This document shows positions 1,163-60,672 of a stretch of DNA of 64,000 nucleotides, piece after piece. Each line of letters opens with the position of its first letter. Within the stretch, counting starts at the first letter, position 1. The position numbers and the translations under genes are program-made. The stretch is from an uncultured Pirellulales bacterium (lineage in GTDB: Bacteria > Planctomycetota > Phycisphaerae > Sedimentisphaerales > SM23-30): assembly GCA_964482555.1 (NCBI GenBank), contig CAYZXY010000001.1, positions 165,030 to 229,029 of the forward strand. Direction: 5' to 3'. Below the pieces are notes generated by a model. That model made no database searches and was not told the DNA's origin. It was given only the letters and a program-made list of their open reading frames with translations.

Positions 1163-1266
1163 TATACTTGATCCGATGGCAAATACCCCTTTTGTCAGAA
1201 TGTAATTACGTGCGGATAAAAACATGCGCCCGGACCTGCCAGGAGCTTTCTGCTTAATTGGGTATA
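1163..1266 (+). mobile_element. 105-bp TA-flanked repeat (family 1), copy A
   Basis: TATACTTGATCCGATGGCAAATACCCCTTTTGTCAGAA...TTGGGTATA, matches the family consensus. Confidence 0.85.
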
Positions 1267-1357
1267 TGGCTGTTTTATAGATAATTATAGTCGGTGAGGC
1301 GAGAGAAGATAAGGAAAAAATAGAAAGCGTTGCCGGATGCCGTTGGAATCGGGCAAG

Positions 1358-1386
1358 ACCATCCCCTCACTTGACGCAAGGGGCTG
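1358..1386 (+). repeat. ~30-bp REP-like hairpin (family 3), copy 1
   Basis: ACCATCCCCTCACTTGACGCAAGGGGCTG; near-identical to the reverse complement of 5953-5982. Confidence 0.65.
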
Positions 1387-1401
1387 TTGATATTTCTGAC
1401 A

Positions 1402-3540
1402 TTAAAGGTACAGAATCAAAGCGGTGGCGATGGTTACAACGAACATGGTAATCATGCCCACGAGCCCCAATGTGTCCTTAAGGGAAGAAGGGACGAAGGT
1501 GAAGGGTTTGTTGACCGTTTCCAGCGAGCGAATAACGGTCTGCTGCGGTCGGGAAAAATGGGCGTAAGGATTATGGCTGGGTGCAGCCGGCTGCGGTTCC
1601 GGCTCCGGTTCGAAATCCGTCTGGCTGCTGCCTTCCAGCTCATCCATAACCAGTTGCTCGTCTTCTGAGATCGGCTCCGGCTCCGGCTCCGATTCAGGTT
1701 CAGGTTCCAGTTCCGGCTCCGGCTCCGATTCAGGTTCAGGTTCCAGTTCCGGCTCCGGCTCCAGTTCCGGCTCCGGCGTTTCAGAGTCATCATTACTGCC
1801 GTCATAAATATCAGATACATCCATATCCTCTTCAGCATCATCAGAGATGACATCTTCCAGATTTGACAAAATCTGATCCAGGTTTTCATCCGTTTTTTCG
1901 GAATCTTCGAGTTCATCTTTTTGGGTAGCCGATGGTTCGGCGGCAGAGGTATCGGGCTCATCGGCGAGGGCGGCTGGTACGAGGTCTTCTTCGTTATCAC
2001 TGTCGCTATCCTGCACCGTTTCCGTCATTGCCGGCGTTTCAGCTTCAGTTTCTTCAATAGTGTCCCGCGGTTCCGGTGTCTCGGCCGATGCGGTTTCCTG
2101 CTGCGTCTCCGGGGCGCCCTCTAATTCCTTTTCCAGACCGGCCAGCAATGCATCCATGTCTTCCGCCTGTGCTTCATTCGATTCGTCACTATCGGATGAG
2201 ACATCAGCAGTTTCCGGTTCCGATGGAATCAGGTCATCCATCGCTGCATCATTTTCCGGGGCCGATACGCGGGATGACTGCGGTGCAATATCTTCGGGTT
2301 CCGACAAAAGAGCATTCGTCTGATCACCCTTTTCTTCAGCCGGCAAGGTGTCATGTAGCGCCTTGGGAGATTTCCCGGCATCCTCCGCAGCCGGGCTGTC
2401 CTTTGCTGCGGGCTCAATAGTGTCTTCAGTAAATGCGGCTTCGTTATACACAGCTTCCGACTCTTGTTCCATTTCCTGTCTGGCGAGCGTGTCGTCTATC
2501 GATTCTTCGTCAGACGTCTCCGGCAGCGCTGAGGTTGTTTCATTATCTTCGATTGCCAGAGTCGCTTCCGGCTCGTCTGATGCTTCGGCGGTTTGCTCCA
2601 GAAGATTTTCTGGTATAATCTCGTCGGTGACTTCTTCCGTAGAATCCGCTTGCGATTGTGATTCCTCCATCTGCGTTTCGCTGGCAGCGATGAGCTCATC
2701 AACGGAAGCATTATCCTCCGTCGGTTTTTCAGCTTCATCCGTCTCGACGGTCTCGACATCAGAAATCTCGGCTATTACAGCTTCCATCCCGCCTTCGACA
2801 ACCGCTGAATCTTCAGCTTCACTGCCGACAGCCTCACCATTGAGCTCTGCTGCCAGCCCCGTCAGCATATCATCGATATTGTCCGGAGCCTCTTCTGCAA
2901 CGTCCTGCTGCTTTTGATCTCCAGACTGCCGCGCCGATTCAGTACTATCAGAATTCTCATCCGCGTTATTCTCGCGCGAATACTGAGCAACATCTTCGAG
3001 TAATTCCGTCAGGTCCTCCAGAATATCATCTTCAATAATGCCTGTCTCATTGCCGTCTGCCATAGCTGCAACGTCATCCTGGTTATTAGACACATTATCA
3101 AATGTCGCCGTCGCTTGTTCGCTGACAGCTTCTTCGGGCTCAGTTTCTGATGGAGCTGACTCCTCCGCAAACGAACCGGATATCATGCTGATTTCCTGTT
3201 CCAGCGACGCCAGCGTATCGTCCACGTTTTCGGAGTTATTCAGGTCAACATTATTATGCCGCGGTTCCTCATCGCCTTGATCTTCGAATGGTTCCTCATC
3301 GGGACCCATTTCCAAATCAACCTTATCAAGGTTTTCCACCGCTTCCGCCAGCAGTGAATCGATGTTCGCTGGATCGGATATACCCGTATCAATATCATCG
3401 CCGCCGATTTCGGACAGGGCATCATCTTCCCCTTTGGTTTCCGGAGCGGAATTATCGGCCTGGTTTTCCGGCTGATTCGAGGAAGTCGATTCTGCGTTGT
3501 TTTCGTTGTCTTTTTCTTCTCTGTTGGATTCTTCCGACAT
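1402..3540 (-). CDS. Highly acidic, probably disordered protein with a C-terminal TM anchor
   Basis: 712-aa ORF, D/E-rich throughout, with a single hydrophobic tail ([22 protein letters not shown]). Confidence 0.85.
1673..1777. repeat. Coding hexamer array (Glu-Pro repeat) containing a 36-bp tandem duplication
   Basis: GGCTCCGGCTCCGATTCAGGTTCAGGTTCCAGTTCC twice (1679-1714, 1715-1750); encodes [12 protein letters not shown]. Confidence 0.9.
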
Positions 3541-3671
3541 AACTACGGTTGTCCTTGCACAGATTATTTACTTTTTGCGTTACGCCATGAAATATATTAC
3601 CTTAATCGGTCAAAGCGTTGTGTGAATCGACTTTTATGCGGATAAGTTGTGTTTTTTTTGCGAGAACAGGT

Positions 3672-4397
3672 ATGCAGGACGTACCACGATTTTATTGCTG
3701 TCCGATAACCTCGCCGCAAACCGGACTGCCGGACGACCAGGCTCATCATTTGTTGCATGTGCTGCGGTTAAAACCCGGCGACCGGGCGGAGGTGTTTGAC
3801 GGCCGGGGAACGCTGGCCCACGCTGTTGTGGCTGATATCGGCAAAAAGCAAGTAACGCTGGATGTGATCGAGATGTTGCCGCCGCAGCCGCCCCCCGGCC
3901 CGCGGCTGGTTATCGCCCCGGCGATTGCGAAGGGCGAACGCTTTGACTGGCTTATCGAAAAATGCACCGAACTGGGCGCCGCGGAGATATGGCCCGTTGT
4001 CTATCGGCGTTCCGTGAAAATGAGCAAAAATCCCCGTACCCGAAAACGCTGGCAGCATATCGCCGTCGCCGCCTGCAAACAAAGCCGACAACTTTTTCTG
4101 CCGCATATCGAAGAATCTTACAGTTTAGCAAATGCACTGAATAGGTTTGTTCAAGAATTACCAAATGCTGTGGTTTTGTATGGTGATCAGGCGGGAGAGC
4201 CTGTGCCCGACATTTTACCGAAGAAAACGTCGCATGTGATTGTTTTTATAGGACCCGAAGGCGGCATGACGGATGAGGAAAAATCTCTGTTGGATCAACG
4301 GCAAGCCCGACCGGTTCGGATAGCCGCCGCTGTTCTGCGGATCGAGACTGCCGCTGTTAGTTTTGCGGCTTTGCTGGCAGAAAAATATGGTCATTAA
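3672..4397 (+). CDS. rsmE: 16S rRNA m3U1498 methyltransferase RsmE
   Basis: HHLLHVLRLKPG, KGERFDWLIEKCTELG, IGPEGG, LRIETAA motifs; start placed at MQDVPRFY. Confidence 0.97.
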   Translation: MQDVPRFYCCPITSPQTGLPDDQAHHLLHVLRLKPGDRAEVFDGRGTLAHAVVADIGKKQVTLDVIEMLPPQPPPGPRLVIAPAIAKGERFDWLIEKCTELGAAEIWPVVYRRSVKMSKNPRTRKRWQHIAVAACKQSRQLFLPHIEESYSLANALNRFVQELPNAVVLYGDQAGEPVPDILPKKTSHVIVFIGPEGGMTDEEKSLLDQRQARPVRIAAAVLRIETAAVSFAALLAEKYGH

Positions 4398-4595
4398 ACT
4401 CCCGGCCGCCTGACGTTCGGCAATGATTATCCATATAAAACATACAATCTGAACAGTTCTATATAGAAAATACAAAAAAAATAGACTGCGGCAGCTAAAC
4501 CCTTGCCAATCAGCAATCATTAATATATAATCTAACCGAGGGAATAATTAGACCTAAATTACTTAAGAGTTAGAGTTATTTCAGGATGGGATGAA

Positions 4596-4721
4596 ATGGC
4601 AATACTCAGAGAAAACAGAGTAACAGTGAAATGGGACTTTTTCGTGGTTTTGAGTTGTGCCGGTCTGGCAACGGCCTTTCTCAGCATCGTCTATCTGTTA
4701 AAATATCTTGGCGAAATGTAG
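4596..4721 (+). CDS. Candidate 41-aa single-TM small protein
   Basis: Hand translation MAILRENRVTVKWDFFVVLSCAGLATAFLSIVYLLKYLGEM*; purine-rich AGGATGGGA upstream; below the ORF-track length cutoff. Confidence 0.5.
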   Translation: MAILRENRVTVKWDFFVVLSCAGLATAFLSIVYLLKYLGEM

Positions 4722-4789
4722 GCGATTTCAACTCAATGTCCTCATCACGGCAAATAACCGGATAACAGCTTCATTAAACTAATATGAGC

Positions 4790-5982: not shown

Positions 5983-5985
5983 ATT

Positions 5986-6090
5986 TATACTTGTTCCGAT
6001 TGCAAATACCCGTTTTGTCGGAACGTAATTATCTGCGGATAAAAAGCTTACGCCCGGCTCTGGCGGGAGCTTTCTACCCAATTGGGTATA
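5986..6090 (+). mobile_element. 105-bp repeat family 1, copy B
   Basis: TATACTTGTTCCGATTGCAAATACCCGTTTTGTCGGAACG...TACCCAATTGGGTATA. Confidence 0.92.
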
Positions 6091-6101
6091 TCTGAAATTG
6101 T

Positions 6102-9882: not shown

Positions 9883-9924
9883 TCTGTCACCGGGGTATTC
9901 CGACCCATGAGTGCCGAGTAAAAA

Positions 9925-10029
9925 TATACTCGTTCCGATTGAAAATTCCCGTTTTGTCAAAACGTAACTGTCTGCGGGCAAAGCCTTTACGACTGGCCCT
10001 GGCGGGAATTCTCATACCCTTTGGGTATA
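9925..10029 (+). mobile_element. 105-bp repeat family 1, copy C (subfamily with G and K)
   Basis: TATACTCGTTCCGATTGAAAATTCCCGTTTTG...GGAATTCTCATACCCTTTGGGTATA. Confidence 0.9.
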
Positions 10030-10109
10030 AACGCCGTGTTCGCATGGTCCACAGCGACAAACAGCCCCCAATAACAATCATGGAATTGCATCGTGGGTGT
10101 CAAATTGGA

Positions 10110-12807: not shown

Positions 12808-12861
12808 TCCGCATATAATTATGTTCCGACAAAACGTGTAATGTCAATCGGAAAGAGTGTA
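12808..12861 (-). mobile_element. Family-1 left-half fragment, reverse orientation
   Basis: Reverse complement TACACTCTTTCCGATTGACATTACACGTTTTGTCGGAACATAATTATATGCGGA. Confidence 0.8.
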
Positions 12862-12864
12862 CAT

Positions 12865-15436: not shown

Positions 15437-15521
15437 CCTTTACCGCTTTCAAAAAAACGCTTCTCCTTCTGTCAGAAACTATCTCCATCCCGATTCCGCC
15501 GGGCTCGTATTCGCGGGCATC

Positions 15522-15624
15522 TATACTCGTTCCGATTGAAAATACCCGTTTTTCGGAACGTAATTATATGCGGATAAAAGCTTACGCCCGGCCCTGCCGG
15601 GAGCTTTCTAACCAATTGGGTATA
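15522..15624 (+). mobile_element. 105-bp repeat family 1, copy D
   Basis: Near-consensus copy between infB and the DUF503 gene. Confidence 0.93.
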
Positions 15625-15661
15625 CTTGCTGAAAAAAACATGAGGTTTCGCCAGCAGCCGA

Positions 15662-21139: not shown

Positions 21140-21212
21140 GGGGGTGTAGCTCAGTTGGTAGAGCAGCGGCCTTTTAAGCCGCGGGTCCTGGGTTCGAGTC
21201 CCAGCGCCCTCA
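21140..21212 (+). tRNA. tRNA-Lys (TTT)
   Basis: GGGGGTG-TA-GCTCAGTTGGTAGAGC, anticodon arm GCGGC-CTTTTAA-GCCGC, T arm CTGGG-TTCGAGT-CCCAG; CCA not encoded. Confidence 0.97.
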
Positions 21213-24598: not shown

Positions 24599-25048
24599 GT
24601 TTGTTAATAAATAATTAAAATAATAATTTATCTTTCAAACTGGCCACTCTATCATCGGCCATGTTCTTATGTCGTTAATACAAAAAACTGTTTTAAATAA
24701 AGGGAATCTACGAGGTTAGTATCACTCTCCAGATTGAGGCAGGTTTCTGTAAATTGCTGGAATTTTCACGTTCCGCTAAGGGATCCTGTCTCATAGCAAC
24801 ATAATTATAGAAGATAACTACAATTACGCTCGGCCTCGACGGAAAGTCTCATACCCCTGCGGGCTAAACATTTCTCTCATTTATAAGCCGAAGTATTATA
24901 CAATATGATCTGCATCTTTAAAAGCCATTTTCAGGTAAAATATCAAAGAACCTGTTAAAATATGTAACGAGGATTTGTAAACCATTACTATAAAACAACT
25001 TATTGAAACAAAACGCTTGCGGGCCGTCCTGACAATACTTGCCGGACC

Positions 25049-27411: not shown

Positions 27412-27464
27412 ATGAACAAAAGTCCTCAGTTCGCGTTAACATCACTGTTAATCGGTAAATAAAT

Positions 27465-27567
27465 TATACCCAATCGGGTAAAAACTCCTGGCAGGGCCAA
27501 ATGTAAACGTTTTATCCGCACACAATTATGATCCAACAAAACGGAAAATTCTATTGGAACGAGTACA
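27465..27567 (-). mobile_element. 105-bp repeat family 1, copy E (reverse orientation)
   Basis: Plus strand TATACCCAATCGGGTA...ATTGGAACGAGTACA. Confidence 0.88.
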
Positions 27568-27613
27568 CTTATGCTTTCAGAATAACATTTTACAAGTTCA
27601 ATGTTAATGTATT

Positions 27614-27718
27614 TATACACGTTAAGATCGATTTCTCACAGATTTCTCCCAACATAATCATGCCAGGGAAAACTTGCACGACCGGTCTTAACTGGATTTT
27701 TCATGCCCTTTAGGTATA
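27614..27718 (+). mobile_element. 105-bp repeat family 1, copy E2 (highly diverged)
   Basis: TATACACGTT...GGATTTTTCATGCCCTTTAGGTATA; exactly 105 bp, ends match the consensus, middle weak. Confidence 0.55.
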
Positions 27719-27911
27719 AAACAAGGATCGGTCCATTATAATATCCATCGACATTTTTATAAACTCTATATACAATATGAGTGTAAATTATAAAAATAGA
27801 AAACTTAAACTGTTTCGAGCAGTCAAGCATTTGTTAGAGATTAAAACCATTATTTCATGATATCATTGTCGGTACGACATGTTCGCATAGGACGGGCCTG
27901 GGCGATTTTTT

Positions 27912-30747: not shown

Positions 30748-30849
30748 CCGTAAATGCCTTGATGTATCAATATAATCCGCGAAACAACGCCAGTAACCGC
30801 AAATGGAAAACAGGCTCACAGCGCTAGTGTTATTCATGTAAACTTTTTG

Positions 30850-30953
30850 TATACTCGTTCCGATTGAAAATGCCCGTTTTTTAAAACGTAATTATCTGTG
30901 GATAAAAAGCTTACGCCCGGCCCTGCCGGGAGCTTTCTACCCAATTGGGTATA
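30850..30953 (+). mobile_element. 105-bp repeat family 1, copy F
   Basis: Near-consensus copy between ruvA and the DUF4416 gene. Confidence 0.93.
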
Positions 30954-31010
30954 TGTAACCTTTGCTTGTTAATTTGAAATCTGACCATCGGTCAGCTTGA
31001 GTATTGCTTT

Positions 31011-31571
31011 ATGGGCCGAATCATACCACCTCAACCCGTCAAACTGATCGTCGGCATGTTCTGCCGGGAGCCGAATCTGTTCAAGGTCGCGGAACATTAT
31101 ATGGAGTCTCTCTGGGGGCCGATCGACATTCACAGCAAATTATACCCTTTCGACAAGACACATTACTATGACAAAGAAATGGGGCCGAACCTGGTGCGTA
31201 AATTCATCAGCTTCACTGCATTGATCGACCCGGGCGGCCTCGCTCGCATCAAGCACCAGACGAACGAGCTTGAAGATACTATTGCCGGCTCCGCTGAAGG
31301 CCGGACGTTGAGCGTCCGCCGGCCGATCAACCTCGACTCCGGCTACATCGAACCCAGCAAACTCGTCCTGGCGACCACAAAAAACTTCTCGCACCGCATC
31401 TACATCGGCGACCGCATCTATGCCGAAGTGACGCTGCATTACGCCAATGGCTGGAAGAGCTGGCCTTTTACCTTTCCCGATTACGGGTCGGGAGCGTATA
31501 ATGATTTCCTGGACGCCGCCCGCGAAAAACTGCTGGAACAATTAAAGGGTGCCTCTAATAATTGCTTTTGA
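31011..31571 (+). CDS. DUF4416 family protein
   Basis: FDKTHYYDKEMG, IKHQTNELE, RPINLDSGYI, KNFSHRIYIG, WPFTFPDY; last codons lie inside repeat family 2. Confidence 0.9.
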   Translation: MGRIIPPQPVKLIVGMFCREPNLFKVAEHYMESLWGPIDIHSKLYPFDKTHYYDKEMGPNLVRKFISFTALIDPGGLARIKHQTNELEDTIAGSAEGRTLSVRRPINLDSGYIEPSKLVLATTKNFSHRIYIGDRIYAEVTLHYANGWKSWPFTFPDYGSGAYNDFLDAAREKLLEQLKGASNNCF

Positions 31572-31707
31572 GGCAAAAGCGAAGATTTTTTTCGTCTGAA
31601 AAGAAATGCAAAACCGGGCATATGGGTGACTATTCACGGTTTTTCATGACGAAGGCCAGAGGGAAAAATGATCGCTTGCAGCCCAATATGAATTTTTAGA
31701 GGTGACC
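31547..31707 (+). mobile_element. ~160-bp MITE-like element (family 2), copy 1
   Basis: Imperfect TIR GGGTGCCTCTAA / TTAGAGGTGACC, TAAA on both flanks; body repeated at 45084-45222. Confidence 0.8.
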
Positions 31708-31731
31708 TAAAGTCAGATCAAAAAGGATCAT

Positions 31732-33539: not shown

Positions 33540-33729
33540 AATGTTATTATGTTTATAAATATCTGTTAATGTTAAAGTTAGTAATACAATGATCCTTGAA
33601 AACTCCCCGTCTGCTGATTGCAGTTTTACTTATGCAGAGTTTTCGCCATTAAAATCATATATGGGAATTTTACGCCGCGTGTTAAATAAATGTTTACTTC
33701 TGGTAAAAAAATAAAAAAAACGGCGATTT

Positions 33730-33834
33730 CATACTCGTTCTGATGGAAAATCCCCGTTTTGTCCAAACGTAAATATTTGCGGGTAAAACCTTTAAGATTG
33801 GCCCTGGCGGGAATTCTCATACCCTTTGTGTATA
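33730..33834 (+). mobile_element. 105-bp repeat family 1, copy G
   Basis: CATACTCGTTCTGATGGAAAATCCCCG...GGAATTCTCATACCCTTTGTGTATA; shares subfamily variants with copy C. Confidence 0.87.
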
Positions 33835-33837
33835 TAA

Positions 33838-34754: not shown

Positions 34755-34859
34755 TTTACTCGTTCCGATTGATAATTCCCGTTTTATCGGAACATGGTTA
34801 TTTACAGATATTAAGTTTTCGCCCGGCCCTGCCAAGAGCTTCCTGCCCAATCGGGTATA
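34755..34859 (+). mobile_element. 105-bp repeat family 1, copy H
   Basis: TTTACTCGTTCCGATTG...GCCCAATCGGGTATA. Confidence 0.87.
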
Positions 34860-34963
34860 GTCATAGATCGCTCCTGAACGGTGGTCGGGAAAATGCCGGT
34901 ATTACTACTTTTATAGTATAATTTATAAGCAAAACCGGCACGCTTGCTCGGAATCCGGGTATT

Positions 34964-35668: not shown

Positions 35669-35836
35669 TCGTCTCTTATTTACAATGTTATGAGCAAATC
35701 GGCAGCATTATCAGAATGACATATTAAAACGAATCATAAAAAACAACAATGAAAATTTAAAATGTATTTGGAGTGGCAGACCGCAATCAGATTAACTACC
35801 ACGACACCAGGCCACTGAGTCAATCACATAGATTTT

Positions 35837-35941
35837 CATATTCGTTCCGATTGAAAATGCCCGTTTTGTCGGAACGTCATTATCTGCGGATAAAAAGCTT
35901 ACGCCCGGCCCCGCCAGGATGTTTCTCACCAATGGGGTATG
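35837..35941 (+). mobile_element. 105-bp repeat family 1, copy I
   Basis: CATATTCGTTCCGATTGAAAATGCCCGTTTTGTCGGAACG...AATGGGGTATG. Confidence 0.9.
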
Positions 35942-39165: not shown

Positions 39166-39252
39166 CTGAATCTCCTTAATTGTACGAGTCAATTATATAT
39201 GTTTGCTGATCAATAACAAACGGCTAATTTTCTGACAGTAAATCATCGCTTT

Positions 39253-39359
39253 TATAATCGTTCCGATGGAAATGCCCCGTTTTTGTCGGAACGTAATTAT
39301 GTGCGGATAAAAAGCTTACACCCGGCCCTGCCCGGGGGCTTGCTGCCCGATTGCGTATA
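39253..39359 (+). mobile_element. 105-bp repeat family 1, copy J
   Basis: TATAATCGTTCCGATGG...CCCGATTGCGTATA. Confidence 0.88.
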
Positions 39360-39489
39360 TTATTACATTACAGCACGACGGGCTATGTCTAGAACTTAGT
39401 GCATTATAAATCATCATTACCTGCCTGAAAAGGAATAAACTTTGATTTCGGCGTTTTTCCGACCGGCCGGAATGACCGACAGAGTACTC

Positions 39490-41534: not shown

Positions 41535-41581
41535 CGCCAATCACCTCCAACCCAGATAAACCGGAAATTCGAATTTTGAAG

Positions 41582-41686
41582 TATACTCGTTCCGATTAAA
41601 ATTTCCCGTTTCGCCTAAGTGTAACTATGTGCGGGCAAAGCCTTTAAACCCGGCCCTGGCGGGAGTTTTCTAACCCATTGGGTATA
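41582..41686 (+). mobile_element. 105-bp repeat family 1, copy K
   Basis: TATACTCGTTCCGATTAAAATTTCCCG...CCCATTGGGTATA. Confidence 0.88.
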
Positions 41687-41697
41687 ACTTCCAGCTT

Positions 41698-45021: not shown

Positions 45022-45050
45022 CCCCCGAAACTTGAATCCTCACAAACTAT

Positions 45051-45222
45051 TATACTCGTTCCGAGGGAAATGGTCCGTTTTATTTTGAGGCGAAAGCGAA
45101 GTTTTTTTCGTCTGACAAGAAATGCAAAACCGGGCATATGGGTGAATATTCACGGTTTTTCATGACGAAGGCCAGAGGGAAAAAGATCGCTTGCAGCCCA
45201 AAATGAATTTTTAGAGGTGCCC
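45051..45222 (+). mobile_element. Chimeric element: family-1 left end fused to family-2 body and right end
   Basis: TATACTCGTTCCGAGGGAAATGGTCCGTTTT then TTTTGAGGCGAAAGCG...TTAGAGGTGCCC. Confidence 0.8.
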
Positions 45223-45254
45223 TTTAATGAAAACTGACCGCAGGCAGGTTTGAG

Positions 45255-46742: not shown

Positions 46743-46755
46743 AATTTGATTAAGC

Positions 46756-46860
46756 TATACTCGTTCCGTTTGCAATGCCCCGTTTTGTCGGAACATAATT
46801 ATTTGCGGATAAAAAGCTTACTCCCGGCTTGGCCTGACGCTTTCTACCCAATCAGGTCTA
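46756..46860 (+). mobile_element. 105-bp repeat family 1, copy M
   Basis: TATACTCGTTCCGTTTGCAATGCCCCGTTTTGTCGGAAC...TACCCAATCAGGTCTA; starts 13 bp from the rpoN start codon. Confidence 0.88.
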
Positions 46861-47115
46861 TAAACTCTTTCTTCTCTTTTCTGCTAATATTATACAATAC
46901 ATATTCGTAAAAACCGGAACGTCGATTTAAATAAAATCCCGAATTCGGGAACCAGAAAATCGCTACAACTCCTAAAACTGTCGATATTATAACAAATCCT
47001 GCACGCCGACATCATTAATCTTGAATTAAATCTACATATAAAATCATTAACATTCCACCTTTTTTCCGCTGGCCTGGGCCGTATATCCCCTACACTTTCC
47101 CTGGTTTGACAGGTA

Positions 47116-48065: not shown

Positions 48066-48099
48066 ACTACCATCCTTATTTTAAACATTAAGTGTTATG

Positions 48100-48203
48100 T
48101 ATGCTCGTTCCGATGGAAAATACCCTTTTGTCGGAACGTAATTCTCTGCGGATAAAAAGCTTACGCCCGGCCCTGCCGGGAGCTTTTTAACCATTTGGGT
48201 ATA
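48100..48203 (+). mobile_element. 105-bp repeat family 1, copy N1
   Basis: Near-consensus copy; shares its terminal TA with N2. Confidence 0.92.
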
Positions 48204-48308
48204 TATTCGTTCCAATTGAAATGGCCTATTCTTTCAGAGCGAAATTATTTGCGGACAATACACATGCGCGATCAGCCCTCTCGGAAGCGTCCTGCCCGGT
48301 TGGGTATA
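48202..48308 (+). mobile_element. 105-bp repeat family 1, copy N2 (diverged, tandem)
   Basis: TATATTCGTTCCAATTGAAA...GCCCGGTTGGGTATA. Confidence 0.75.
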
Positions 48309-48394
48309 ATATGGTTTATCGTTGGCTCATCTATTTCAACAGCACGCCGAATCGGGAACGATTCAGACTTTTCCGACATTACCAACGCTTCGGC

Positions 48395-54294: not shown

Positions 54295-54761
54295 TTTTCT
54301 TTATTCCTGTCAAAATATCATAAAAAAATCAGATTTTAGCGCTATGCAACACTACTATTTTAACCCATCTGCAAAAAATTTAAATGTTTAATTTGTTTCA
54401 GTGCGGACAACGGGGGGATATTTCGCAATATATCTGGGCAAATTTATCGTGGAAAATATCTTGTCTTGCCCGTCCAAAAAACCTCGTTGCCTGTTTTCCT
54501 TCCCACCTCTCCTCGATTACTGGAAAACAGGTATAGACAAACCACTCTCCTGCAAATATATTATCACACTCCGGGGGGCATTATGCAAGAGAAAAGACCG
54601 ATTTCCTGCCCGAAACCAGCAAAACAGCTATAACCAACCGGGCAGCAAGCTCCAGACAAAACCACACATAACCGTTTTCTTTATAACTAGTTACAGATGA
54701 AGAAAACGGGGAAACGCCATCAGAATCCATGTAAACGAGGGGAGATCAATCGAAGATATGG

Positions 54762-55220: not shown

Positions 55221-55353
55221 ATTAGTGGCACATCCTCTTGGTAATCTGTTCTCCTTCATCGCCAAAAACAATAGAAATTATGCATAATAAATCCATTTTT
55301 TCCCAGCAATATCCCAAAAAAAGAGGAAAAAGGCTGATTGTCTCGCAATGGAT

Positions 55354-55458
55354 TATACCCAATTGGATTGAAAGCTCCGAACCGAGCCGGGCGTAAGCTT
55401 TTCATCTGCAAATAATTACGTACCGACAAAACGGAGCATTTCCATCGCAACGTGTATA
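55354..55458 (-). mobile_element. 105-bp repeat family 1, copy O (reverse orientation)
   Basis: Plus strand TATACCCAATTGG...CATCGCAACGTGTATA. Confidence 0.88.
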
Positions 55459-55479
55459 AATAGCATATTATGCAGAATA

Positions 55480-57210
55480 TCAGGCGCCTTTGCCCAGCGC
55501 CCGCCGAATCTCACCTATCAACTGATCGACTTTAAATGGTTTATACAAAACGGCATTCAATCCTTCCCGGTTCGCTCGGACGATCGAATGATTCGGGTCG
55601 TACCCAAATCCCGTCATCAGAATCACGGGAATCTCACTATCCAAGTCACGTGCCGTAGCAAAAATTTCATAACCATTTGCAAATGGCAGCTTTATGTCAG
55701 ATATCACCAGATGGTACTGCTGTTTGCCCAGCAGCGCCTTGGCCTCACGACCATCGCGGGCGGCATCCACAATACACCCATATTTCTGCACCACATCCGT
55801 GATCGTCTGACGAATGAACTCCTCATCATCCACCAAAAGAATCTGTTTGCCCGCCAGCAGCGGGTCGATCTCAACATCCGAAATGGACTGCACACCGAAA
55901 ATCCCTTTGGGTTGATCTTGTAAATCTTTCATCGACCGCTTGATGCTCACAACATTATCCACGATACCCTGCAGCCGATGTCGGAGATCGTCATGACCGA
56001 TATAATCCTCCATTATCAACGATGCCTGAGTCAAAATCGCATTCAGCGGCTCAGACACTTGACGGTTGAGATTGTCCGCCGCCTGGCCCGTCGTCTGATA
56101 GCGCTCCACCACCATCAAATCCAGTATATTCATGGCTATGGCAATATATCGGCCGAAAATCTCCGCCATCTGACGATCGTCCTCATCGAAGGCCTGATCC
56201 TGGGCGCTCTCGACATTCAACGTCCCCACCACCTTGTCATGCAGCAGCAGAGGCACCGTCAGACAGCACTTCGCGTCCGCCATCCCGGCTATATACCGCG
56301 GATCGGCCGACAGGCTATTGCAGATATAACTACGCCCCGTCGCCGCCACATAACCGGTGATGCCGTTGTTTTCAATATTGGCAAAAAGCTCCGCATGGTT
56401 ATCCATCGGCACCCCCGCTCCAAAAAGCACCTCCAACTGGTTATTCCGGCGGTTGAGCAGACGGACCACGAAATTATCGAAATGCAGCAGATCTCTGGCA
56501 TATCGCACAATCTTGTCCTGCAAAAGATTAATACGCTCTTCGACAACCATATTACTGAGCGTCTCCGCCTCGAGCCGCACCAGTTCACGGCCGGCCTTGT
56601 CAATGGCGTCTATCCGCTGCTGCAGCTTACGGCTGGCGGTTTCATCCCAGACGACCGTGGCCACATGGCTGATGCGATTATGCTCATCGAGCATGGGATT
56701 CACGATCATCTCAAAATATCGCCCGGTCTTCTCATCTGTCAGAGAATACTTTCGCGGACGCAGCGGCACATTCTGAGGCAGGGTTTCCAGATCGCGGGCA
56801 AAAGACGCAAACGCCCCGCGGCTCCGGGAGAAAATCCCCTCTTTTACCGCTTCGGAAAAGCCTTCCATCTTGAAATTCGACCAGAGCGCCGCACCGTTCT
56901 CATTCACCACGCAAACGCCCTCACCGACCGTGTTTAAAATCGACATGGCTTTTTCCGCCACCACCGCCCTTTCCAGCGGCAGAAAATCTGCCGTGCCCGA
57001 TATGACGGCATCGAAATCCTGCTCCTGCAGGGAAACGATCGCCTTTTCCACGGAATCAGCCGTTAATCCGGTCAAATTTTGTGATTCGGCTATTAACGCT
57101 TCAAAAACGCGAGAAGGACAATTGGCCCCCTTGCTCTTTAAAATCAAAACCTTGAGTTTTTCCGTATCCGATTTTTCCGCGATTGCCGGTTTGATATCAT
57201 TATTGCACAT
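55480..57210 (-). CDS. PAS-GAF-(degenerate HisKA)-REC signalling protein
   Basis: PAS-like and GAF regions (VPLLLHDKVVGTLNVES); C-terminal REC LLVDDE..VISDIKLP..MTGFG..KPF; no HATPase domain. Confidence 0.88.
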   Translation of the reverse strand: MCNNDIKPAIAEKSDTEKLKVLILKSKGANCPSRVFEALIAESQNLTGLTADSVEKAIVSLQEQDFDAVISGTADFLPLERAVVAEKAMSILNTVGEGVCVVNENGAALWSNFKMEGFSEAVKEGIFSRSRGAFASFARDLETLPQNVPLRPRKYSLTDEKTGRYFEMIVNPMLDEHNRISHVATVVWDETASRKLQQRIDAIDKAGRELVRLEAETLSNMVVEERINLLQDKIVRYARDLLHFDNFVVRLLNRRNNQLEVLFGAGVPMDNHAELFANIENNGITGYVAATGRSYICNSLSADPRYIAGMADAKCCLTVPLLLHDKVVGTLNVESAQDQAFDEDDRQMAEIFGRYIAIAMNILDLMVVERYQTTGQAADNLNRQVSEPLNAILTQASLIMEDYIGHDDLRHRLQGIVDNVVSIKRSMKDLQDQPKGIFGVQSISDVEIDPLLAGKQILLVDDEEFIRQTITDVVQKYGCIVDAARDGREAKALLGKQQYHLVISDIKLPFANGYEIFATARDLDSEIPVILMTGFGYDPNHSIVRANREGLNAVLYKPFKVDQLIGEIRRALGKGA

Positions 57211-57231
57211 AGCTATCTCGTCACGATTTAT

Positions 57232-57336
57232 TATACTGCTTCCGAATTAAGTTTTGCCGTTTTTTCAAACCATAATCACTTACACGGAAAACAGTTAGGT
57301 GTGGCTTTACCGGAAGCTCCCTGACCGATGGGGTAT
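57232..57336 (+). mobile_element. 105-bp repeat family 1, copy P (diverged)
   Basis: TATACTGCTTCCGAATT...CCGATGGGTATA, 105 bp; shares variants with copy S. Confidence 0.6.
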
Positions 57337-57420
57337 AATTCCGGCTGAGCCGGGTTAAGCAATATTTTTCTATATTAAAGTATAACAGATTAAAATCGGT
57401 TTGGGAATAGGAATATATCT

Positions 57421-57476
57421 GAAAGTTAACTTTCGCGTTTTTTTTTGATCACTCTGGCGTTCCGCAGGGCCTTTAA
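57421..57476 (+). repeat. ~55-bp motif (family 4), copy 1
   Basis: GAAAGTTAACTTTC palindrome, T-run, TGGCGTTCCGCAGGGCCTTT; repeated at 60518. Confidence 0.7.
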
Positions 57477-57493
57477 AACCCCTTGATATTCTT

Positions 57494-57597
57494 TATACGC
57501 ATTCCGATGGCAACGCCCCGTTTTGCCTAAACGTAATTATGGGCGGAGAAAAAGCTTTCGCCCGGCTTTGCCCGAGCTTTATACCCAATTGGGTATA
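57494..57597 (+). mobile_element. 105-bp repeat family 1, copy Q
   Basis: TATACGCATTCCGATGG...TACCCAATTGGGTATA. Confidence 0.88.
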
Positions 57598-57916
57598 GGT
57601 ATTTAAAAAAATGGGAAATAAGTGATTCCCTCTGTCGAGGGGGGATATGACTATACGACGCAATCGGCTTTGCGATTTGCCTGCCGTGTTTGAGCCAGGC
57701 TTACCTCCCAGGCTGCAAGCATAAAAAAACCCAATCGTCCTGGAAACATGCTCATGTTTTCCTGAGAATCCGATTGGGCGCTCGCTCTCATTCTCCCAGG
57801 TTGTCTGGGTTATTATATGCACAAAGCCATGCCGCTCAGCCTGTCCCGTATAAACCGGAACGATACCCATCTAGGAACGAAAGGAGGTGTATCAAATCTT
57901 TAAATGGGTATTGTTT

Positions 57917-58918
57917 TTAAAACCTCGGTTCCTGACCCACATTATCCTGAACCCGGGGATGAGCGTTTTCATACTCTTTCTTCATCCGGTCGGTCGTCAG
58001 ATGGGTGTAGATCTGGGTCGTACTGAGCGACTGATGTCCGAGCAGTTCCTGTACCACACGCAGGTCGGCTCCGTTGTTGAGCATGTGCGTGGCGAAACTG
58101 TGCCGCAGGGTGTGCGGGCTGATTTTCGGGTCCAAACCGGCCTGGAGGAGATACTTATCCAGCTTTCTGCGAACCGAGCGGGTGCTCAGTCGCTGACCGT
58201 GTTTGTTGATAAACAGGGCCTGCTGATCGAAATCCTGCTTTCGGGGATCGGCGTCCCGGAAAGTCAGGTAACGCTGGATGCATTGCAGCGCCGAAGCGCC
58301 AATTGGCGAGATCCGTTCTTTTTTGCCTTTTCCGCGGAGATGCAGAACCTCTCCCAGAAAATCGACGTCATTCAAATTCAAACCCACCAGTTCGCTGACA
58401 CGCAAACCGCTGCTGTACAGCGTCTCGATAATGGCACGGTCGCGAGCGCCCAGCATCGTATTGGTGTCCGGGCTTTCCAGCAGCCGCTTGACATGATCAA
58501 TCTCCAGGCAGCGCGGAAGGCGCTTTTCCTGCTTGGGCGTACGGATCGAGCTGACGGGACTGCTTTCTATCCGTCCCCGACGAATCAGGAACTTGTAGAA
58601 ACTGCGCAGCGTCGCCAGTTTGCGGGCGGTGGTGGCTTTGGAATAACCCTGCTCGTTCAAATAAGCCAGATACGCGCGAATCAGCGAGACATCGGCCTGG
58701 ACGATACGGGCATTCACTTCAACGGCTACGGCGGTTTGCGGCGTCGCAGCGCCCGCCATCCCCGCGTCCTGCATGTCACTGGCCGGTTCATCTTGTTGCG
58801 AGATAAAACCAGCAAACTGAATCAGGTCCGCCTGGTAACACTTGGTAGTGTACGGGGAAAAGTGCTTTTCATATTTTAAATAATCCAGAAATTCTTTAAT
58901 AATGGGATAATCTTGCAT
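57917..58918 (-). CDS. xerC: Tyrosine recombinase XerC
   Basis: ARKLATLRSFYKFL, SSGLRVSEL, GKGKKER, SPHTLRHSFATH, LGHQSLSTTQIYTH; start MQDYP after AGGA. Confidence 0.93.
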   Translation of the reverse strand: MQDYPIIKEFLDYLKYEKHFSPYTTKCYQADLIQFAGFISQQDEPASDMQDAGMAGAATPQTAVAVEVNARIVQADVSLIRAYLAYLNEQGYSKATTARKLATLRSFYKFLIRRGRIESSPVSSIRTPKQEKRLPRCLEIDHVKRLLESPDTNTMLGARDRAIIETLYSSGLRVSELVGLNLNDVDFLGEVLHLRGKGKKERISPIGASALQCIQRYLTFRDADPRKQDFDQQALFINKHGQRLSTRSVRRKLDKYLLQAGLDPKISPHTLRHSFATHMLNNGADLRVVQELLGHQSLSTTQIYTHLTTDRMKKEYENAHPRVQDNVGQEPRF

Positions 58919-58983
58919 TGTCCTACCACAATCGGCGAAGGTGAACATTTCCCTGGCATGTAGGGGTTTAATCATTAGCCCGC

Positions 58984-59235
58984 GAGCGGCTGTTCAGGGT
59001 CTGTGAACATACACTCTACCTTGGGACGACCTTACACGGCCGCCTGGAAATTGCCGCTATCCTCTCCGGATACGCAACGCAATTTCTGAACAACATGATG
59101 TCATATCTGTGAGACCGGAGCGAGAAGTGAACTTATCGCTGCGCCAGTCTTTAACTAATTCAATTCAGACGGCTGCGTAAACCTGTTTAACAACTCCCTG
59201 ATTAAACCACGGTTCCGTCTGTCGGGTCTCCGCCC
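58984..59235 (-). ncRNA. Candidate ~250-nt multi-hairpin RNA between a small gene and xerC (unassigned)
   Basis: Four tandem hairpins plus a possible closing stem; see findings. Confidence 0.45.
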
Positions 59236-59246
59236 ATTTTATAAAT

Positions 59247-59522
59247 TTACTCTGTATCGCATTCATCCAGCGAGTTCAACCCGGAAGACGTCGAATGCGT
59301 TTGAGGACAGAGGTACTTATCTGCTTCTTCAACCAGCTGCTTACTGAGCTGAAAGCTCAATACCGCGGCGTCAAACCAGTCAAAATGATTGCCTTGATCG
59401 TTGGCCAGATCAACGAAAGAATCCAGCAGGTCTTCCTCCGCGCCTGATTCATAACGAAACACAAAGCGTTCTTCTTCTTTTACAAGTGTCAGTTCTTTGA
59501 TGCTGCTGCCCATCATGACCAT
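59247..59522 (-). CDS. Small acidic hypothetical protein
   Basis: 91-aa ORF, protein-like composition (IKELTLVKEEERFVFRYESG..FDWFDAAVLSFQL), same strand as its neighbours. Confidence 0.75.
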   Translation of the reverse strand: MVMMGSSIKELTLVKEEERFVFRYESGAEEDLLDSFVDLANDQGNHFDWFDAAVLSFQLSKQLVEEADKYLCPQTHSTSSGLNSLDECDTE

Positions 59523-59551
59523 CCTGTCAGGGCGATGCCCTGGGGGTATGT

Positions 59552-59670
59552 TCTACTCGTTCCGATTGAAAACTCTCGTTTTACTGGAACGTAATTATGT
59601 GCGTTAAAAAACATTTATACTGTTTCCGATTGAGTTTTCGCTTACGCGGCTCTGCCGAAGCTTTCTAAAC
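59552..59670 (+). mobile_element. Family-1 rearranged copy R with a second internal left end
   Basis: TCTACTCGTTCCGATTG...GTGCG, then TATACTGTTTCCGATTG at 59616, then GCTTACGCGGCTCTGCCGAAGCTTTCT. Confidence 0.72.
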
Positions 59671-59677
59671 GGGGCAC

Positions 59678-60451
59678 CTATTCGATCCGCTCCTTTTCCC
59701 GTGCCAGCAGCTCGCCTGTCATTTCATGACAGACAAAGCGTATATAGTTCCGCCGGGTCGTCCAGATACGCCAGGTGTAAGGCGAGTCCTTGGCACCGCG
59801 CTGACGACTGAACTCCTGAATGCGACGGCGCGTCTCCTCGTTGCCGGCGTCAAATATCCTCACGACCATGGCCCGCGGTTTGATCGGCGCGCCGGCCGGC
59901 AGCTCCATCGGACTGGCGGCTTTGGATATCTCCGCCGGATTGATGTTAACCAGCGATCGGCCCTCGATAACCTTATCGTCCCGCAGGTACATCTGCAGGG
60001 TCATGCCCATCTGCGGCGGCGGATAAGGGTCGTAACGGGTCACCGTTCCGACGATGACACCCTCGACATCCAGCGTCTCCGCCAGCAGAATGACCTCATC
60101 GGGACTCTCAACGTTCTGCATCCCCAGATCGCTCAGAGCCGCCAGCACACGGTTGACCGGCATGACATGCAGCTGCCCCTTGACCTGCTGCAATTCGGCA
60201 TAAAGCTCGTCCGTCACCGCCATGATGTCCAGGTCCTCCGAACCGGACAGGTTCCGGAACGGAACGACAGCAATGCTGTAAGCCTCGGGATATGGACTGG
60301 TATAGACACGCTCGACGCTCTGGCCGCATCCTGACAAAAACAGAATCATCGACAACGCCATCAAACATACCGTGCCCGCCCAGACTTTTCGCCGTCGGCC
60401 GCAATAACTACCGGTATTTGCTCTGACTCTATTCACTTGTCGCCCATCCAT
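59678..60451 (-). CDS. Lipoprotein (CsgG/TolB-N-like alpha/beta fold)
   Basis: Lipobox LSG-C; SIAVVPFRNLSG, VIVGTVTRYDPY. Confidence 0.75.
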   Translation of the reverse strand: MDGRQVNRVRANTGSYCGRRRKVWAGTVCLMALSMILFLSGCGQSVERVYTSPYPEAYSIAVVPFRNLSGSEDLDIMAVTDELYAELQQVKGQLHVMPVNRVLAALSDLGMQNVESPDEVILLAETLDVEGVIVGTVTRYDPYPPPQMGMTLQMYLRDDKVIEGRSLVNINPAEISKAASPMELPAGAPIKPRAMVVRIFDAGNEETRRRIQEFSRQRGAKDSPYTWRIWTTRRNYIRFVCHEMTGELLAREKERIE

Positions 60452-60517
60452 GGTTTCATTCGTTCGTCTTATCCGGGCTCATCCGTGAACCCGCTATATT
60501 ATTTATCGGCATTTGCC

Positions 60518-60568
60518 GAAGTTAACTTTCGCTTTTTTTGTGAGCGTTTTGGCGTTCCGCAGGCCTTT
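60518..60568 (+). repeat. ~55-bp motif (family 4), copy 2
   Basis: GAAGTTAACTTTCGCTTTTTTTG..TGGCGTTCCGCAGGCCTTT; abuts copy S. Confidence 0.7.
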
Positions 60569-60672
60569 TATACTGCCTCCGATGAAAATCACCCGTTTTC
60601 TCCAACCATAACTGCTTTTATGAAAACGATCAGGCGTGACCCTGCCAGAAGCTTTCTTCCCGATGGGGTATA
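60569..60672 (+). mobile_element. 105-bp repeat family 1, copy S (diverged)
   Basis: TATACTGCCTCCGATGAAAATCACCCGTTTT...CCCGATGGGGTATA. Confidence 0.72.

Follow-up and report, generated by a model that had tools for sequence, protein, structure and literature searches.

The window analysed here, a 64-kb stretch of contig C1 of an uncultured planctomycete, has mostly minus-strand genes and a negative skew, and carries many copies of a short repeat, R105, together with two copies of an unrelated miniature element, R170 (Table 1). R105 (forward strand, TATACTCGTTCCGATTG...) is 105 nt long, lineage-specific and non-coding, and occupies an AT-rich TA target; since it is flanked by TA at both ends, with imperfect 27-nt terminal inverted repeats, it is a classical MITE and not an element of the IS200/IS605 type. 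A nhmmer profile, prepared from copies in the window and put through one iteration against the genome as a whole, detected 869 copies in 3.6 Mb, ca. 2.3% of the genome; 24 of them (E<1e-3) are located in the window. A sequence-only reading of this DNA had noted a strong one-strand bias of the element (20 plus, 3 minus), and this was confirmed, the count being now 20 plus and 4 minus. All three reversed copies were found again, together with a degenerate reversed copy absent from the earlier list and three weak plus copies, those at 24765..24865, 27612..27719 and 45050..45083.

Table 1. Copies of R105 and R170 in the window (positions are those of the 64-kb stretch).
Feature	Position	Strand	Context and match
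R105, full length	1161..1267	+	between two minus-strand genes; nhmmer E=7e-23
R105, full length	5984..6091	+	between two minus-strand genes; nhmmer E=1e-33; folded
R105, subfamily B type	9924..10031	+	between convergent genes; nhmmer E=1e-31
R105 left-half copy, reversed	12808..12863	-	between convergent genes; nhmmer E=4e-10, model positions 2-57
R105	15520..15625	+	between minus-strand genes; nhmmer E=1e-31
R105, degenerate	24765..24865	+	between minus-strand genes; nhmmer E=3e-5
R105, reversed	27464..27567	-	divergent spacer; nhmmer E=5e-23
R105, degenerate	27612..27719	+	same divergent spacer as 27464..27567; nhmmer E=2e-8
R105, copy F of the earlier list	30848..30954	+	between plus-strand genes; nhmmer E=5e-32
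R105, subfamily B type	33729..33835	+	between minus-strand genes; nhmmer E=6e-28
R105	34756..34860	+	between minus-strand genes; nhmmer E=2e-23
R105	35835..35940	+	between minus-strand genes; nhmmer E=3e-29
R105	39251..39360	+	divergent spacer; nhmmer E=4e-26
R105, subfamily B type	41581..41688	+	between convergent genes; nhmmer E=8e-28
R105 left-end fragment	45050..45083	+	abuts R170 copy; nhmmer E=1e-3, model positions 3-36
R105	46755..46861	+	between minus-strand genes; nhmmer E=2e-24
R105, first of head-to-tail pair	48098..48205	+	terminal TATA common to both; nhmmer E=6e-30
R105, second of head-to-tail pair	48201..48309	+	nhmmer E=3e-16
R105, degenerate, reversed	54628..54732	-	not in the earlier list; nhmmer E=8e-10
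R105, reversed	55353..55460	-	between minus-strand genes; nhmmer E=9e-26
R105, divergent subfamily C type	57231..57338	+	nhmmer E=1e-14
R105	57492..57598	+	between minus-strand genes; nhmmer E=2e-23
R105 left-half copy	59552..59612	+	nhmmer E=1e-10, model positions 4-64
R105, subfamily C type	60567..60673	+	nhmmer E=6e-17
R170, MITE unrelated to R105	31541..31720	+	ca. 165 nt; regional polarity as R105
R170, second window copy, 5'-truncated	45083..45223	+	abuts R105 fragment

Between two minus-strand genes, 13 copies are plus and 2 minus; the ratio is 4:1 between convergent genes and 2:1 between divergent genes, and a single plus copy lies between plus-strand genes, matching the contexts that the earlier reading had given for plus copies. 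A naive binomial on 20:4 gives p=0.0015, and the warning issued with the original count, that copies are not independent, is borne out by the regional coherence of orientation across the genome. The plus excess of the window is real but typical for this genome, because a genome-trained model combining flanking-gene strand with local GC3 skew expects 16.4 plus copies out of 24, with P(>=20)=0.07. From 70 to 233 kb of C1, a region no shorter than 160 kb that contains the window, 38 copies are plus and 13 minus, and the 20:4 ratio results from this plus-polarity domain combined with mostly minus-strand genes and negative skew.

Genome-wide, R105 orientation depends on three separable things, namely regional polarity, strand composition and flanking genes, and is set mainly by the first rather than by neighbouring genes. 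The existence of a regional polarity is nearly certain. The raw ratio, 442:427, does not speak against a bias, being uninformative as long as the direction of each contig is arbitrary. In a leave-one-out comparison, 409 of 531 copies (77%) have the orientation of most of their neighbours. Runs of at least 8 same-way copies occur 20 times, as compared with 1.3 expected, and adjacent copies agree in 67% of cases, where a model based on gene strand predicts 51.5% (z=8), or 55% when local skew is included (z=5.9). On contig C5, 31 of 33 copies point the same way although the genes alternate in strand. Copies that are neighbours do not resemble each other more than randomly paired ones do (0.299 vs 0.298), nor do they share subfamilies more frequently, and the regional coherence does not come from local hopping. 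The polarity is found in all four R105 subfamilies.

When orientation was mapped genome-wide, as the sequence-only reading had suggested, it was found to track GC skew at third codon positions (GC3 skew), with a weaker effect of gene strand. The forward strand of R105 lies on the C-rich strand for 62% of all copies, for 73% at |GC3 skew|>=0.2, and for 76-92% where the skew of the flanking genes is >0.3. This placement holds at convergent (70%) and divergent sites (62%; pooled 66%, contig-bootstrap CI 56-75%). Among 30-kb blocks, 61 of 88 are concordant for orientation and skew and 27 discordant (p=4e-4); both flip together (OR 3.6, p=7e-5), as seen at 20 kb on C6, 10 kb on C15 and 8 kb on C27, and a joint model with contig bootstrap finds the gene and skew effects both significant. 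On contig C10, rpoB and rplB are on the G-rich strand, and 17 of 22 R105 copies, the first 10 among them, run antisense to these genes. Of 35 tRNAs, 25 lie on the G-rich strand; in the frame of the element, tRNAs are unbiased (11:12). GC3 skew is itself a mosaic, with a neighbour correlation decaying over ca. 8 genes and at least three origin-like switches, which cannot all be origins, and no change of orientation is seen at dnaA on C1. Several contigs are strongly coherent but opposite to their own skew (C9, 1:11; C14, 11:1; C28 and C33), and in well-defined regions ca. 22% of copies occupy such places. For this assembly of 154 contigs with mosaic skew, a replication-linked polarity is the preferred reading and is considered here as probable.

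The polarity extends beyond R105. In 26/30 to 28/32 cases, R170 (ca. 165 nt, ends GGGTGCCTCTAATAAT.../...TTTTTAGAGGTGCCC, with a 4-bp TWWA duplication and long inverted ends) has the orientation of the R105 majority, and its pairs on one contig comprise 18 same and 2 different orientations. A 118-nt family follows R105 in 16 of 17 cases, and two further families display a fixed relative orientation (9/11 and 8/10). At least two unrelated families, R170 and the 118-nt family, share the polarity of R105, which points to a host-level factor. A polar octamer marking the domains was sought outside the elements and none was found; with unrelated families sharing the polarity, the polar chromosome-organising motif evoked by the earlier reading is unlikely if specific to R105.

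To account for an established polarity that correlates with skew, is independent of gene strand and copy relatedness, and is shared by other families, we infer that it reflects replication and acts at insertion. The forward strand of R105 preferentially occupies the C-rich strand, and therefore its reverse complement the G-rich, presumptive leading strand, which is also the sense strand of rpoB and of the ribosomal-protein operons. Regional polarity would correspond to replication direction, and orientation would be imposed mostly at insertion, double-strand, DDE-type transposition being tied to the asymmetry of the replication fork in the way proposed for Tn7/TnsE and for many beta-clamp-binding IS families. 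Transcription may provide a second filter, weaker and slower. The whole chain, including coupling to the fork at insertion, is advanced as a serious but tentative proposal; because an intact cognate transposase for R105 was searched for and none found, interaction with the clamp or fork can only be inferred.

Polarity could also be replication-linked but arise after insertion, R105 inserting either way and one orientation relative to the fork being lost faster, for instance because hairpins promote deletion on the lagging-strand template or because signals carried by the element cause head-on conflicts. This is a possible, though less probable, scenario. A host-side filter is a simple explanation for a polarity common to unrelated families with different transposases, and agreement with the majority is slightly lower for partial than for full R105 copies (68% vs 76%, p=0.045), which leans towards loss. 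The hairpins of the two R170 strands are not equally stable (-39.1 vs -34.0 kcal/mol on DNA folding), the less stable strand being on the presumptive lagging-strand template, where imperfect palindromes were reportedly found by Trinh and Sinden in 1991 to be deleted asymmetrically in E. coli. In contrast, the two R105 strands fold almost equally (-22.9/-21.6, -16.1/-16.3 and -13.0/-14.4 kcal/mol for subfamilies A, B and C, respectively), coherence is at 75% even in the youngest fifth of copies and does not rise across divergence fifths (0.75, 0.78, 0.79, 0.76, 0.70), and minority-orientation copies are no more diverged than majority ones.

A rather unlikely alternative is that the domains do not reflect replication as it now proceeds, and represent once-polarised blocks shuffled by inversions that took skew and repeats along, or another property of whole domains such as chromosome folding or a regime of long-range transcription. 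The mosaic of skew over 10-30 kb and its several origin-like switches, a repeat coherence (77-90%) exceeding skew concordance (62-73%), the contigs discordant with their own skew, and the joint flips, as if segments inverted as units, are all in line with this view. Yet an original polarising process would still be needed, and the operons of rpoB and of ribosomal proteins, which serve as anchors, conform to the rule. To our knowledge, replication is the only process acting on both base composition and transposon orientation.

Flanking genes have a weaker effect, independent of regional polarity. In tandem spacers, 309 copies are antisense and 164 sense (65% antisense), older copies are more often antisense (57% rising to 74%, permutation p=0.024), and antisense copies lie nearer the downstream start codon (median 67 vs 103 nt, p=2e-4). 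The reverse strand of subfamily A also has a GC hairpin followed by TTTTTAT. Neighbouring transcription alone might be thought to fix orientation, by selection for or against a terminator, promoter or RNA-stability effect. This is very improbable: neighbouring gene strand explains only ca. 60-65% of orientations and regional gene bias predicts just 53-55%, subfamily B is equally biased without the hairpin-plus-T-run, a terminator scan flagged a single window copy, and R170, which tends to be sense to genes (20:10), is nevertheless co-oriented with R105. As sole cause, transcription is refuted by the gene-strand model, by convergent and divergent sites and by C5; the earlier statement that local transcription alone does not fix orientation is supported, the regional polarity being present at such sites and on gene-alternating contigs.

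Equally hard to sustain is the movement of R105 as ssDNA, with a Y1 HUH transposase (IS200/IS605 or RAYT type) that would insert it one way into the lagging-strand template. IS200/IS605 elements (IS608, ISDra2; Ton-Hoang et al. 2010, cited by PMC3971601 and PMC5027513) have an orientation tied to the lagging-strand template and hairpin-containing ends; R105 has three hairpins per element and a bias of the right general kind, and two Y1_Tnp-domain genes occur on C1. However, those elements are described there as lacking inverted ends and target duplication, as using an asymmetric 4-5-nt left-end target and as requiring a Y1 transposase, whereas R105, besides its TA-flanked inverted ends, has AT-rich flanks that are roughly symmetric, neither side alone bearing a conserved 4-5-nt target, four nested insertions in which TA is replaced by TA-element-TA, and a CGTAAT site where it was inserted in both orientations at the same TA. 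The free-standing Y1 gene, as read from sequence, has no recognisable HUH motif and no flanking R105 hairpins, and R170, with its clear duplication and long inverted ends, has the same polarity. R105 anatomy contradicts this route and, with it, the IS200/IS605 analogy of the earlier reading; of the suggestion made there that insertion may be coupled to the fork or to ssDNA, the first part is partly supported, polarity tracking replication-type skew, and the second is not supported. That the bias is due to chance, or was created when repeats were assembled through, is scarcely credible, for although this is a draft metagenome-assembled genome in which 91 copies adjoin contig ends and neighbouring copies are not independent, the excess of long runs, the z-score and the block and bootstrap tests stand against it, completeness is 97% and contamination 0.1%, and a mis-join through a repeat would not be expected to co-orient the next copies along unique DNA.

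Such an orientation bias has already been described in IS families and, in a weaker form, in MITEs of the pneumococcus. Replication-linked orientation was reported for DDE insertion sequences, with mixed behaviour of IS630 (Gomez et al. 2014, PMC3971601), and has a precedent in Tn7-TnsE (Peters and Craig 2001, as cited therein). As with R105, independently inserted IS elements prefer one direction relative to the fork defined by GC skew, gene orientation does not explain the bias, different families of a single chromosome can each be fixed in polarity, and IS630, a TA-duplicating family, exhibits such bias in some chromosomes (PMC3971601). The premise that a TA-target MITE should insert either way, on which the sequence-only reading relied, is thus unsafe. 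Unlike the present case, that study concerned autonomous IS in closed genomes, with a bias strong mainly in Firmicutes and reported absent outside Proteobacteria, Actinobacteria and Firmicutes; here, non-autonomous MITEs of a planctomycete have their polarity in mosaic domains. The pneumococcal BOX, RUP and SPRITE (Croucher et al. 2011, PMC3049150) are likewise small intergenic MITE-like repeats of ca. 100-150 nt, RUP being a 107-bp TA-type element. Their mild bias (60.8%, 60.9% and 63.3% on the leading strand, respectively) was read as mirroring coding bias (PMC3049150), whereas that of R105 is separable from flanking-gene strand, regionally stronger (77-90% coherence) and persists where genes alternate. 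Correia elements of Neisseria and ERIC of enterobacteria are also high-copy, TA-flanked or structured intergenic MITEs, but share no sequence with R105. We know of no description of regional replication-type polarity for either. According to the summary in PMC3049150, their orientation relative to transcription alters mRNA processing. In the planctomycete genome studied here, several unrelated mini-transposon families are aligned over domains of tens of kilobases, in keeping with the strand asymmetry that replication normally leaves.

The 105-nt repeat of the window (R105) was searched with an nhmmer profile seeded from nine window copies and iterated once over the whole assembly, a draft metagenome-assembled genome of 3.62 Mb in 154 contigs (C1, C5, etc.), which retrieved 869 copies genome-wide (E<1e-3). 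R105 is short, high-copy, intergenic and non-coding, with just 29 of the 869 copies falling inside called ORFs. The window, C1:165030-229029, holds 24 copies, 20 plus and 4 minus, so that the one-way excess described in the sequence-only reading is real: its three reversed copies were all found again, together with an additional, degenerate one (see the table below). Gene contexts, derived from our own ORF and codon-usage calls, also agreed with that reading, with 13 plus and 2 minus copies located between minus-strand genes and a single plus copy between plus-strand genes; convergent gene pairs flank 4 plus copies and 1 minus, divergent pairs 2 plus and 1 minus. The genome-wide tally of 442 plus and 427 minus is uninformative, because contig orientation is arbitrary. 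R105 was found neither in 30 relatives drawn from the organism's family and order nor in the species-representative genome collection, where a lone R105-like match in an Oscillospiraceae genome is likely due to chance. No Rfam family matched R105 or R170, an unrelated miniature element (MITE) of the window.

Neighbouring copies are the strongest predictor of R105 orientation (73%), followed by skew (63-65%) and genes (60%). The gene-strand account stands in part only: in tandem spacers 309 copies are antisense to the genes and 164 sense (65% antisense), but genes predict just 60% of orientations. Atypical-codon-usage ORFs dilute this effect, R105 being 52% antisense beside them versus ca. 70% beside other ORFs. 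An interpretation in terms of expression, based on a codon-adaptation proxy, was dropped because its reference, a gene run on C9, proved to be a flagellar cluster rather than a set of ribosomal-protein genes. GC skew at third codon positions (GC3 skew) is very strong in this genome (per-gene SD 0.235) and is common to neighbouring opposite-strand genes (r=0.46); it therefore belongs to the DNA strand and not to the coding strand. Of all R105 copies, 62% have the forward strand on the C-rich strand, a proportion reaching 73% where the 10-kb regional skew is at least 0.2 and 76-92% where flanking-gene skew exceeds 0.3, with 70% at convergent and 62% at divergent sites. In a joint logistic model, the gene and skew effects were each significant, with contig-bootstrap intervals excluding zero, and where the two are opposed R105 orientation is ca. 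50:50. With 30-kb blocks as units, the skew rule was kept in 61 and broken in 27 (p=4e-4).

Beyond these local effects, R105 orientation is coherent over whole regions. Adjacent copies are concordant in 67% of cases, versus 51.5% under a gene-only model (z=8) and 55% under a model combining genes and skew (z=5.9), and 77% of the copies point the same way as the majority of the others within 15 kb (leave-one-out). Runs of at least eight copies number 20 for 1.3 expected, the longest spanning 87 kb, and on C5 31 of the 33 copies point in one direction although gene strands alternate. This regional coherence bears out the earlier proposal that local transcription alone does not fix orientation.

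Several causes of this coherence were considered and rejected. Local hopping or duplication is contradicted by neighbouring copies being no more alike than random pairs (0.299 vs 0.298), with no increase in subfamily sharing; the copies come from a genome-wide pool and yet still align. K-means clustering divided R105 into four subfamilies, A (357 copies, mean divergence from own consensus 13%), B (174 copies, 10%), C (59 copies, 20%), and D (58 copies, 24%), all four of which are biased. Terminator function was dismissed on these grounds, subfamily A having a GC hairpin and a T-run while subfamily B, without both, is equally biased, and a consensus terminator scan flagged one window copy only. 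The R105 bias is thus one of independent insertions that gene orientation does not explain. It is also present early: the least-diverged fifth of the copies is 75% coherent with its neighbours, for 57% agreement with gene strand and 61% with skew, whereas the antisense-to-gene fraction climbs with copy age to 74% (permutation p=0.024). The gene-strand effect therefore looks like a slow filter on copies, regional polarity being present from the start. Substitution asymmetry within copies (C>T vs G>A etc.), taken as a test of whether current mutational polarity goes with the elements or with the skew, gave an intermediate result, one confounded by sub-subfamily structure.

The same polarity was found in other repeat families. 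R170 has long inverted ends (GGGTGCCTCTAATAAT... and ...TTTTTAGAGGTGCCC) and a 4-bp TWWA duplication, and its 58 copies of at least 100 nt are 85-97% identical. In 28 of 32 cases its orientation is that of the R105 majority nearby, and leaving out R105 copies within 300 nt gives 26 of 30, and same-contig pairs (18 same, 2 different) indicate that it is polarised more strongly than R105. When masked intergenic DNA was searched de novo, further families emerged, of which the 118-nt (16/17, co-oriented), 181-nt (9/11), and 168-nt (8/10) families have a fixed orientation relative to the R105 majority, and the 53-nt family shows no bias (7/13). R170 is mostly sense to flanking genes (20:10) and R105 mostly antisense, yet both are co-oriented, and gene strand is therefore not the shared cause. 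Polarity belongs to the chromosome region, not to R105. The suggestion that R105 might itself be a polar chromosome-organising motif is at odds with these unrelated repeats having its polarity too; moreover, in a search for a KOPS-like motif among octamers with at least 40 occurrences, in the element-defined frame, no octamer outside the elements stood out (best |z|=4.7) or marked the polarity domains.

The modal length of R105 is 105 nt, and its consensus starts with TATACTCGTTCCGATTGAAAAT and ends with CCCAATTGGGTATA. The ends of subfamily B form an imperfect inverted repeat of ca. 27 nt, composed of TATAC/GTATA, a divergent decamer, and TGAAAATTCCCG vs TGAGAATTCCCG; the two ends match at 18 of 27 positions as read from the consensus, and the element folds end to end; the inverted ends are weaker in subfamily A. 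In four nested R105-in-R105 insertions, a host TA was converted to TA-element-TA, and one host site, CGTAAT, received R105 in both orientations. Flanks are AT-rich and near mirror-symmetric, with T at -1 and A at +1, and the termini read TA-TA, a configuration in which a 2-bp duplication and insertion beside a TA are not separable from sequence. Judged by this anatomy, R105 is a classical TA-target, inverted-repeat MITE and not an IS200/IS605-type element. It is also short, non-coding, high-copy, and intergenic with inverted ends, like the RUP-like MITEs that duplicate TA, carry terminal inverted repeats, and are mobilised by IS630/Tc1-mariner elements. An IS200/IS605 or RAYT/REP-type single-stranded DNA element is contradicted by the flanking TA at either end, the inverted ends, the symmetry of the target, and the insertion in both orientations at one TA, and the single-strand HUH coupling proposed earlier as the cause of the bias does not agree with element anatomy.

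No autonomous partner transposase with matching ends was found in the genome. IS630-type DDE_3 domains are represented by only two decayed fragments, one of which is split at a TA by an R105 copy and has an end unlike that of R105. Left-end-only R105 matches run on into unrelated sequence and revealed no partner there. Two genes contain a Y1_Tnp domain, one free-standing and IS200-like, the other match being located within a long open frame. The free-standing gene has no recognisable HUH motif, the usual position reading DKGFY, and no R105 hairpins in its flanks; on its sequence, it may be inactive or domesticated.

Coordinates of repeats, genes, and skew features in the window and in other parts of the assembly
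Feature	Location	Strand	Remarks
Tandem 12-nt repeats, TCCGGCTCCGGC-like	window 1664-1777		within a 712-aa ORF, 1402-3540, minus strand
tRNA gene	window 21140-21212	plus	72.5 bits; sole Rfam gathering-score match in the window
R170	window 31541-31720 and 45083-45223		second MITE, ca. 165 nt, long hairpin
R105 head-to-tail pairs (common terminal TATA) and four nested insertions at internal TA, informative on the insertion target	window 48098-48309; C149:2267-2459, C19:50573-50783, C58:9811-10019, C85:5950-6158		
Additional reversed R105 copy	window 54628-54732	minus	degenerate
118-nt family seed	C1:84282-84399		outside the window; 31 members; TCTTGTTGCGGAAACC...GTAACCGCAACAGAAAC, inverted ends GTTGCGG/CCGCAAC
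181-nt family seed	C10:58121		
168-nt family seed	C9:51785		
107-nt family seed	C1:23927		
53-nt family seed	C14:40792		
DDE_3 fragment	C13:68028-68291		split by R105 copy 68133-68239
DDE_3 fragment	C113:4311-4463		
Free-standing Y1_Tnp gene	C1:29529-30215	minus	228 aa
Second Y1_Tnp match	C1:14861-15088		within a 1226-aa open frame
DnaA-family gene, full-length	C1:103540-104901	minus	Bac_DnaA, 221 bits
DnaA-family gene, full-length	C27:25569-27011	plus	Bac_DnaA, 194 bits
AT-rich divergent spacer at skew minimum	C27:8312-8588		
Skew mosaic, examples	C6:20808-34625, C27:1-20000		
Large flagellar cluster	C9:5913-35985	minus	28 co-directional genes in a Phycisphaerae-class genome, first FlhF, FlhA, FlhB, FliR, FliQ, FliP, MotB-like; R105 downstream coherently opposite to the genome-wide rule

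Several observations connect this polarity with replication. Between adjacent copies, orientation and skew switch together (OR 3.6, p=7e-5). At 20 kb on C6, 11 plus copies are followed by 11 of 12 minus, while skew passes from ca. -0.25 to between +0.3 and +0.6, and C15 displays a joint, origin-like switch of orientation and skew at ca. 10 kb. C27 provides a further joint switch at ca. 8.3 kb, where cumulative GC skew forms a sharp V (minimum) within a divergent, AT-rich spacer; one of the two full-length dnaA genes lies 17 kb away. On C10, the G-rich strand carries rpoB and rplB, to which 17 of the contig's 22 R105 copies, the first ten among them, are antisense. tRNA genes occupy the G-rich strand in 25 of 35 cases. 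Other observations oppose a simple picture. In the element frame, tRNA genes are unbiased, and the domains carry no polar octamer. Neither orientation nor skew switches at the dnaA gene of C1, DnaA-box matches are not clustered at the C27 origin-like V, and such switches are not unique to C27, similar ones being found on C6 and C15. Strand skew is a mosaic, with sign changes every 10-30 kb, per-gene GC3 skew up to +/-0.7, and 1-kb total GC skew up to +/-0.3, common to genes of both strands. With this mosaic and its several origin-like switches, replichores cannot be drawn. On C9, C14, C28, and C33, R105 is coherent but in the wrong sense for skew, and about one fifth of the copies in well-defined regions lie in skew-discordant places. 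The mosaic skew suggests many inversions or another domain process. Inversions older than most insertions would have scrambled a skew that re-equilibrates slowly, and the repeats would then record a more recent fork direction than the skew does; this inferred combination of old inversions, slow skew, and younger repeats fits both the supporting and the opposing evidence.

Since the HUH model is contradicted by anatomy and transcription alone by regional coherence, a replication-type polarity remains, arising either at insertion or by loss. Imposition at insertion is tentatively placed first: R105 coherence does not rise with copy age, and no age difference was found between minority- and majority-orientation copies, both of which were counted in its favour. 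There is precedent in the numerous DDE transposases that bind the beta clamp and whose insertion sequences show replication-linked polarity, IS630 being mixed (PMC3971601); Tn7/TnsE is cited in the same paper. Placed second and unlikely, differential retention would have copies lost after insertion according to their orientation. It would account for families with different transposases having a common polarity, as well as for partial R105 copies being slightly less polarised, and R170 hairpins differ in stability by 5 kcal/mol between the two strands, in the direction that loss predicts; for R105, however, both strands fold equally. Returning to insertion-time coupling, its fuller form is more doubtful: transposition of several unrelated double-strand (DDE-type) MITE families might be physically coupled to the replication fork, each family inserting with a fixed polarity, in which case the repeats would constitute a dense, fast record of fork direction.

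Replication-linked orientation is already known for insertion-sequence families (PMC3971601), and the pneumococcal BOX, RUP, and SPRITE repeats have a weak leading-strand bias of 61-63%, attributed there to coding bias (PMC3049150). In contrast to these pneumococcal repeats, R105 has a stronger regional coherence (77-90%) that is separable from gene strand. In this single genome, at least three unrelated MITE families are co-polarised to this degree in domains of tens of kb, and their polarity tracks strand composition. What is new here is how strong the effect is, that it can be separated from gene strand, that MITE families unrelated to one another have it in common, that it takes the form of mosaic domains, and the phylum in which it occurs; it is neither a new mechanism nor evidence of an IS200-like element. 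If differential loss were true, this genome would offer a natural experiment on the orientation-dependent instability of hairpin repeats. If fork-coupled insertion were true, strong replication-polarised transposition would reach the Planctomycetota and non-autonomous elements, where it is undescribed, and the co-orientation of repeats with operons, read as possibly functional, would need reinterpreting. Dense MITEs could then be used as markers of polarity, by which contigs of draft genomes are oriented and inversions recognised, and the many inversions of this genome would become datable and mappable from the contrast between the repeats and the slower GC skew.
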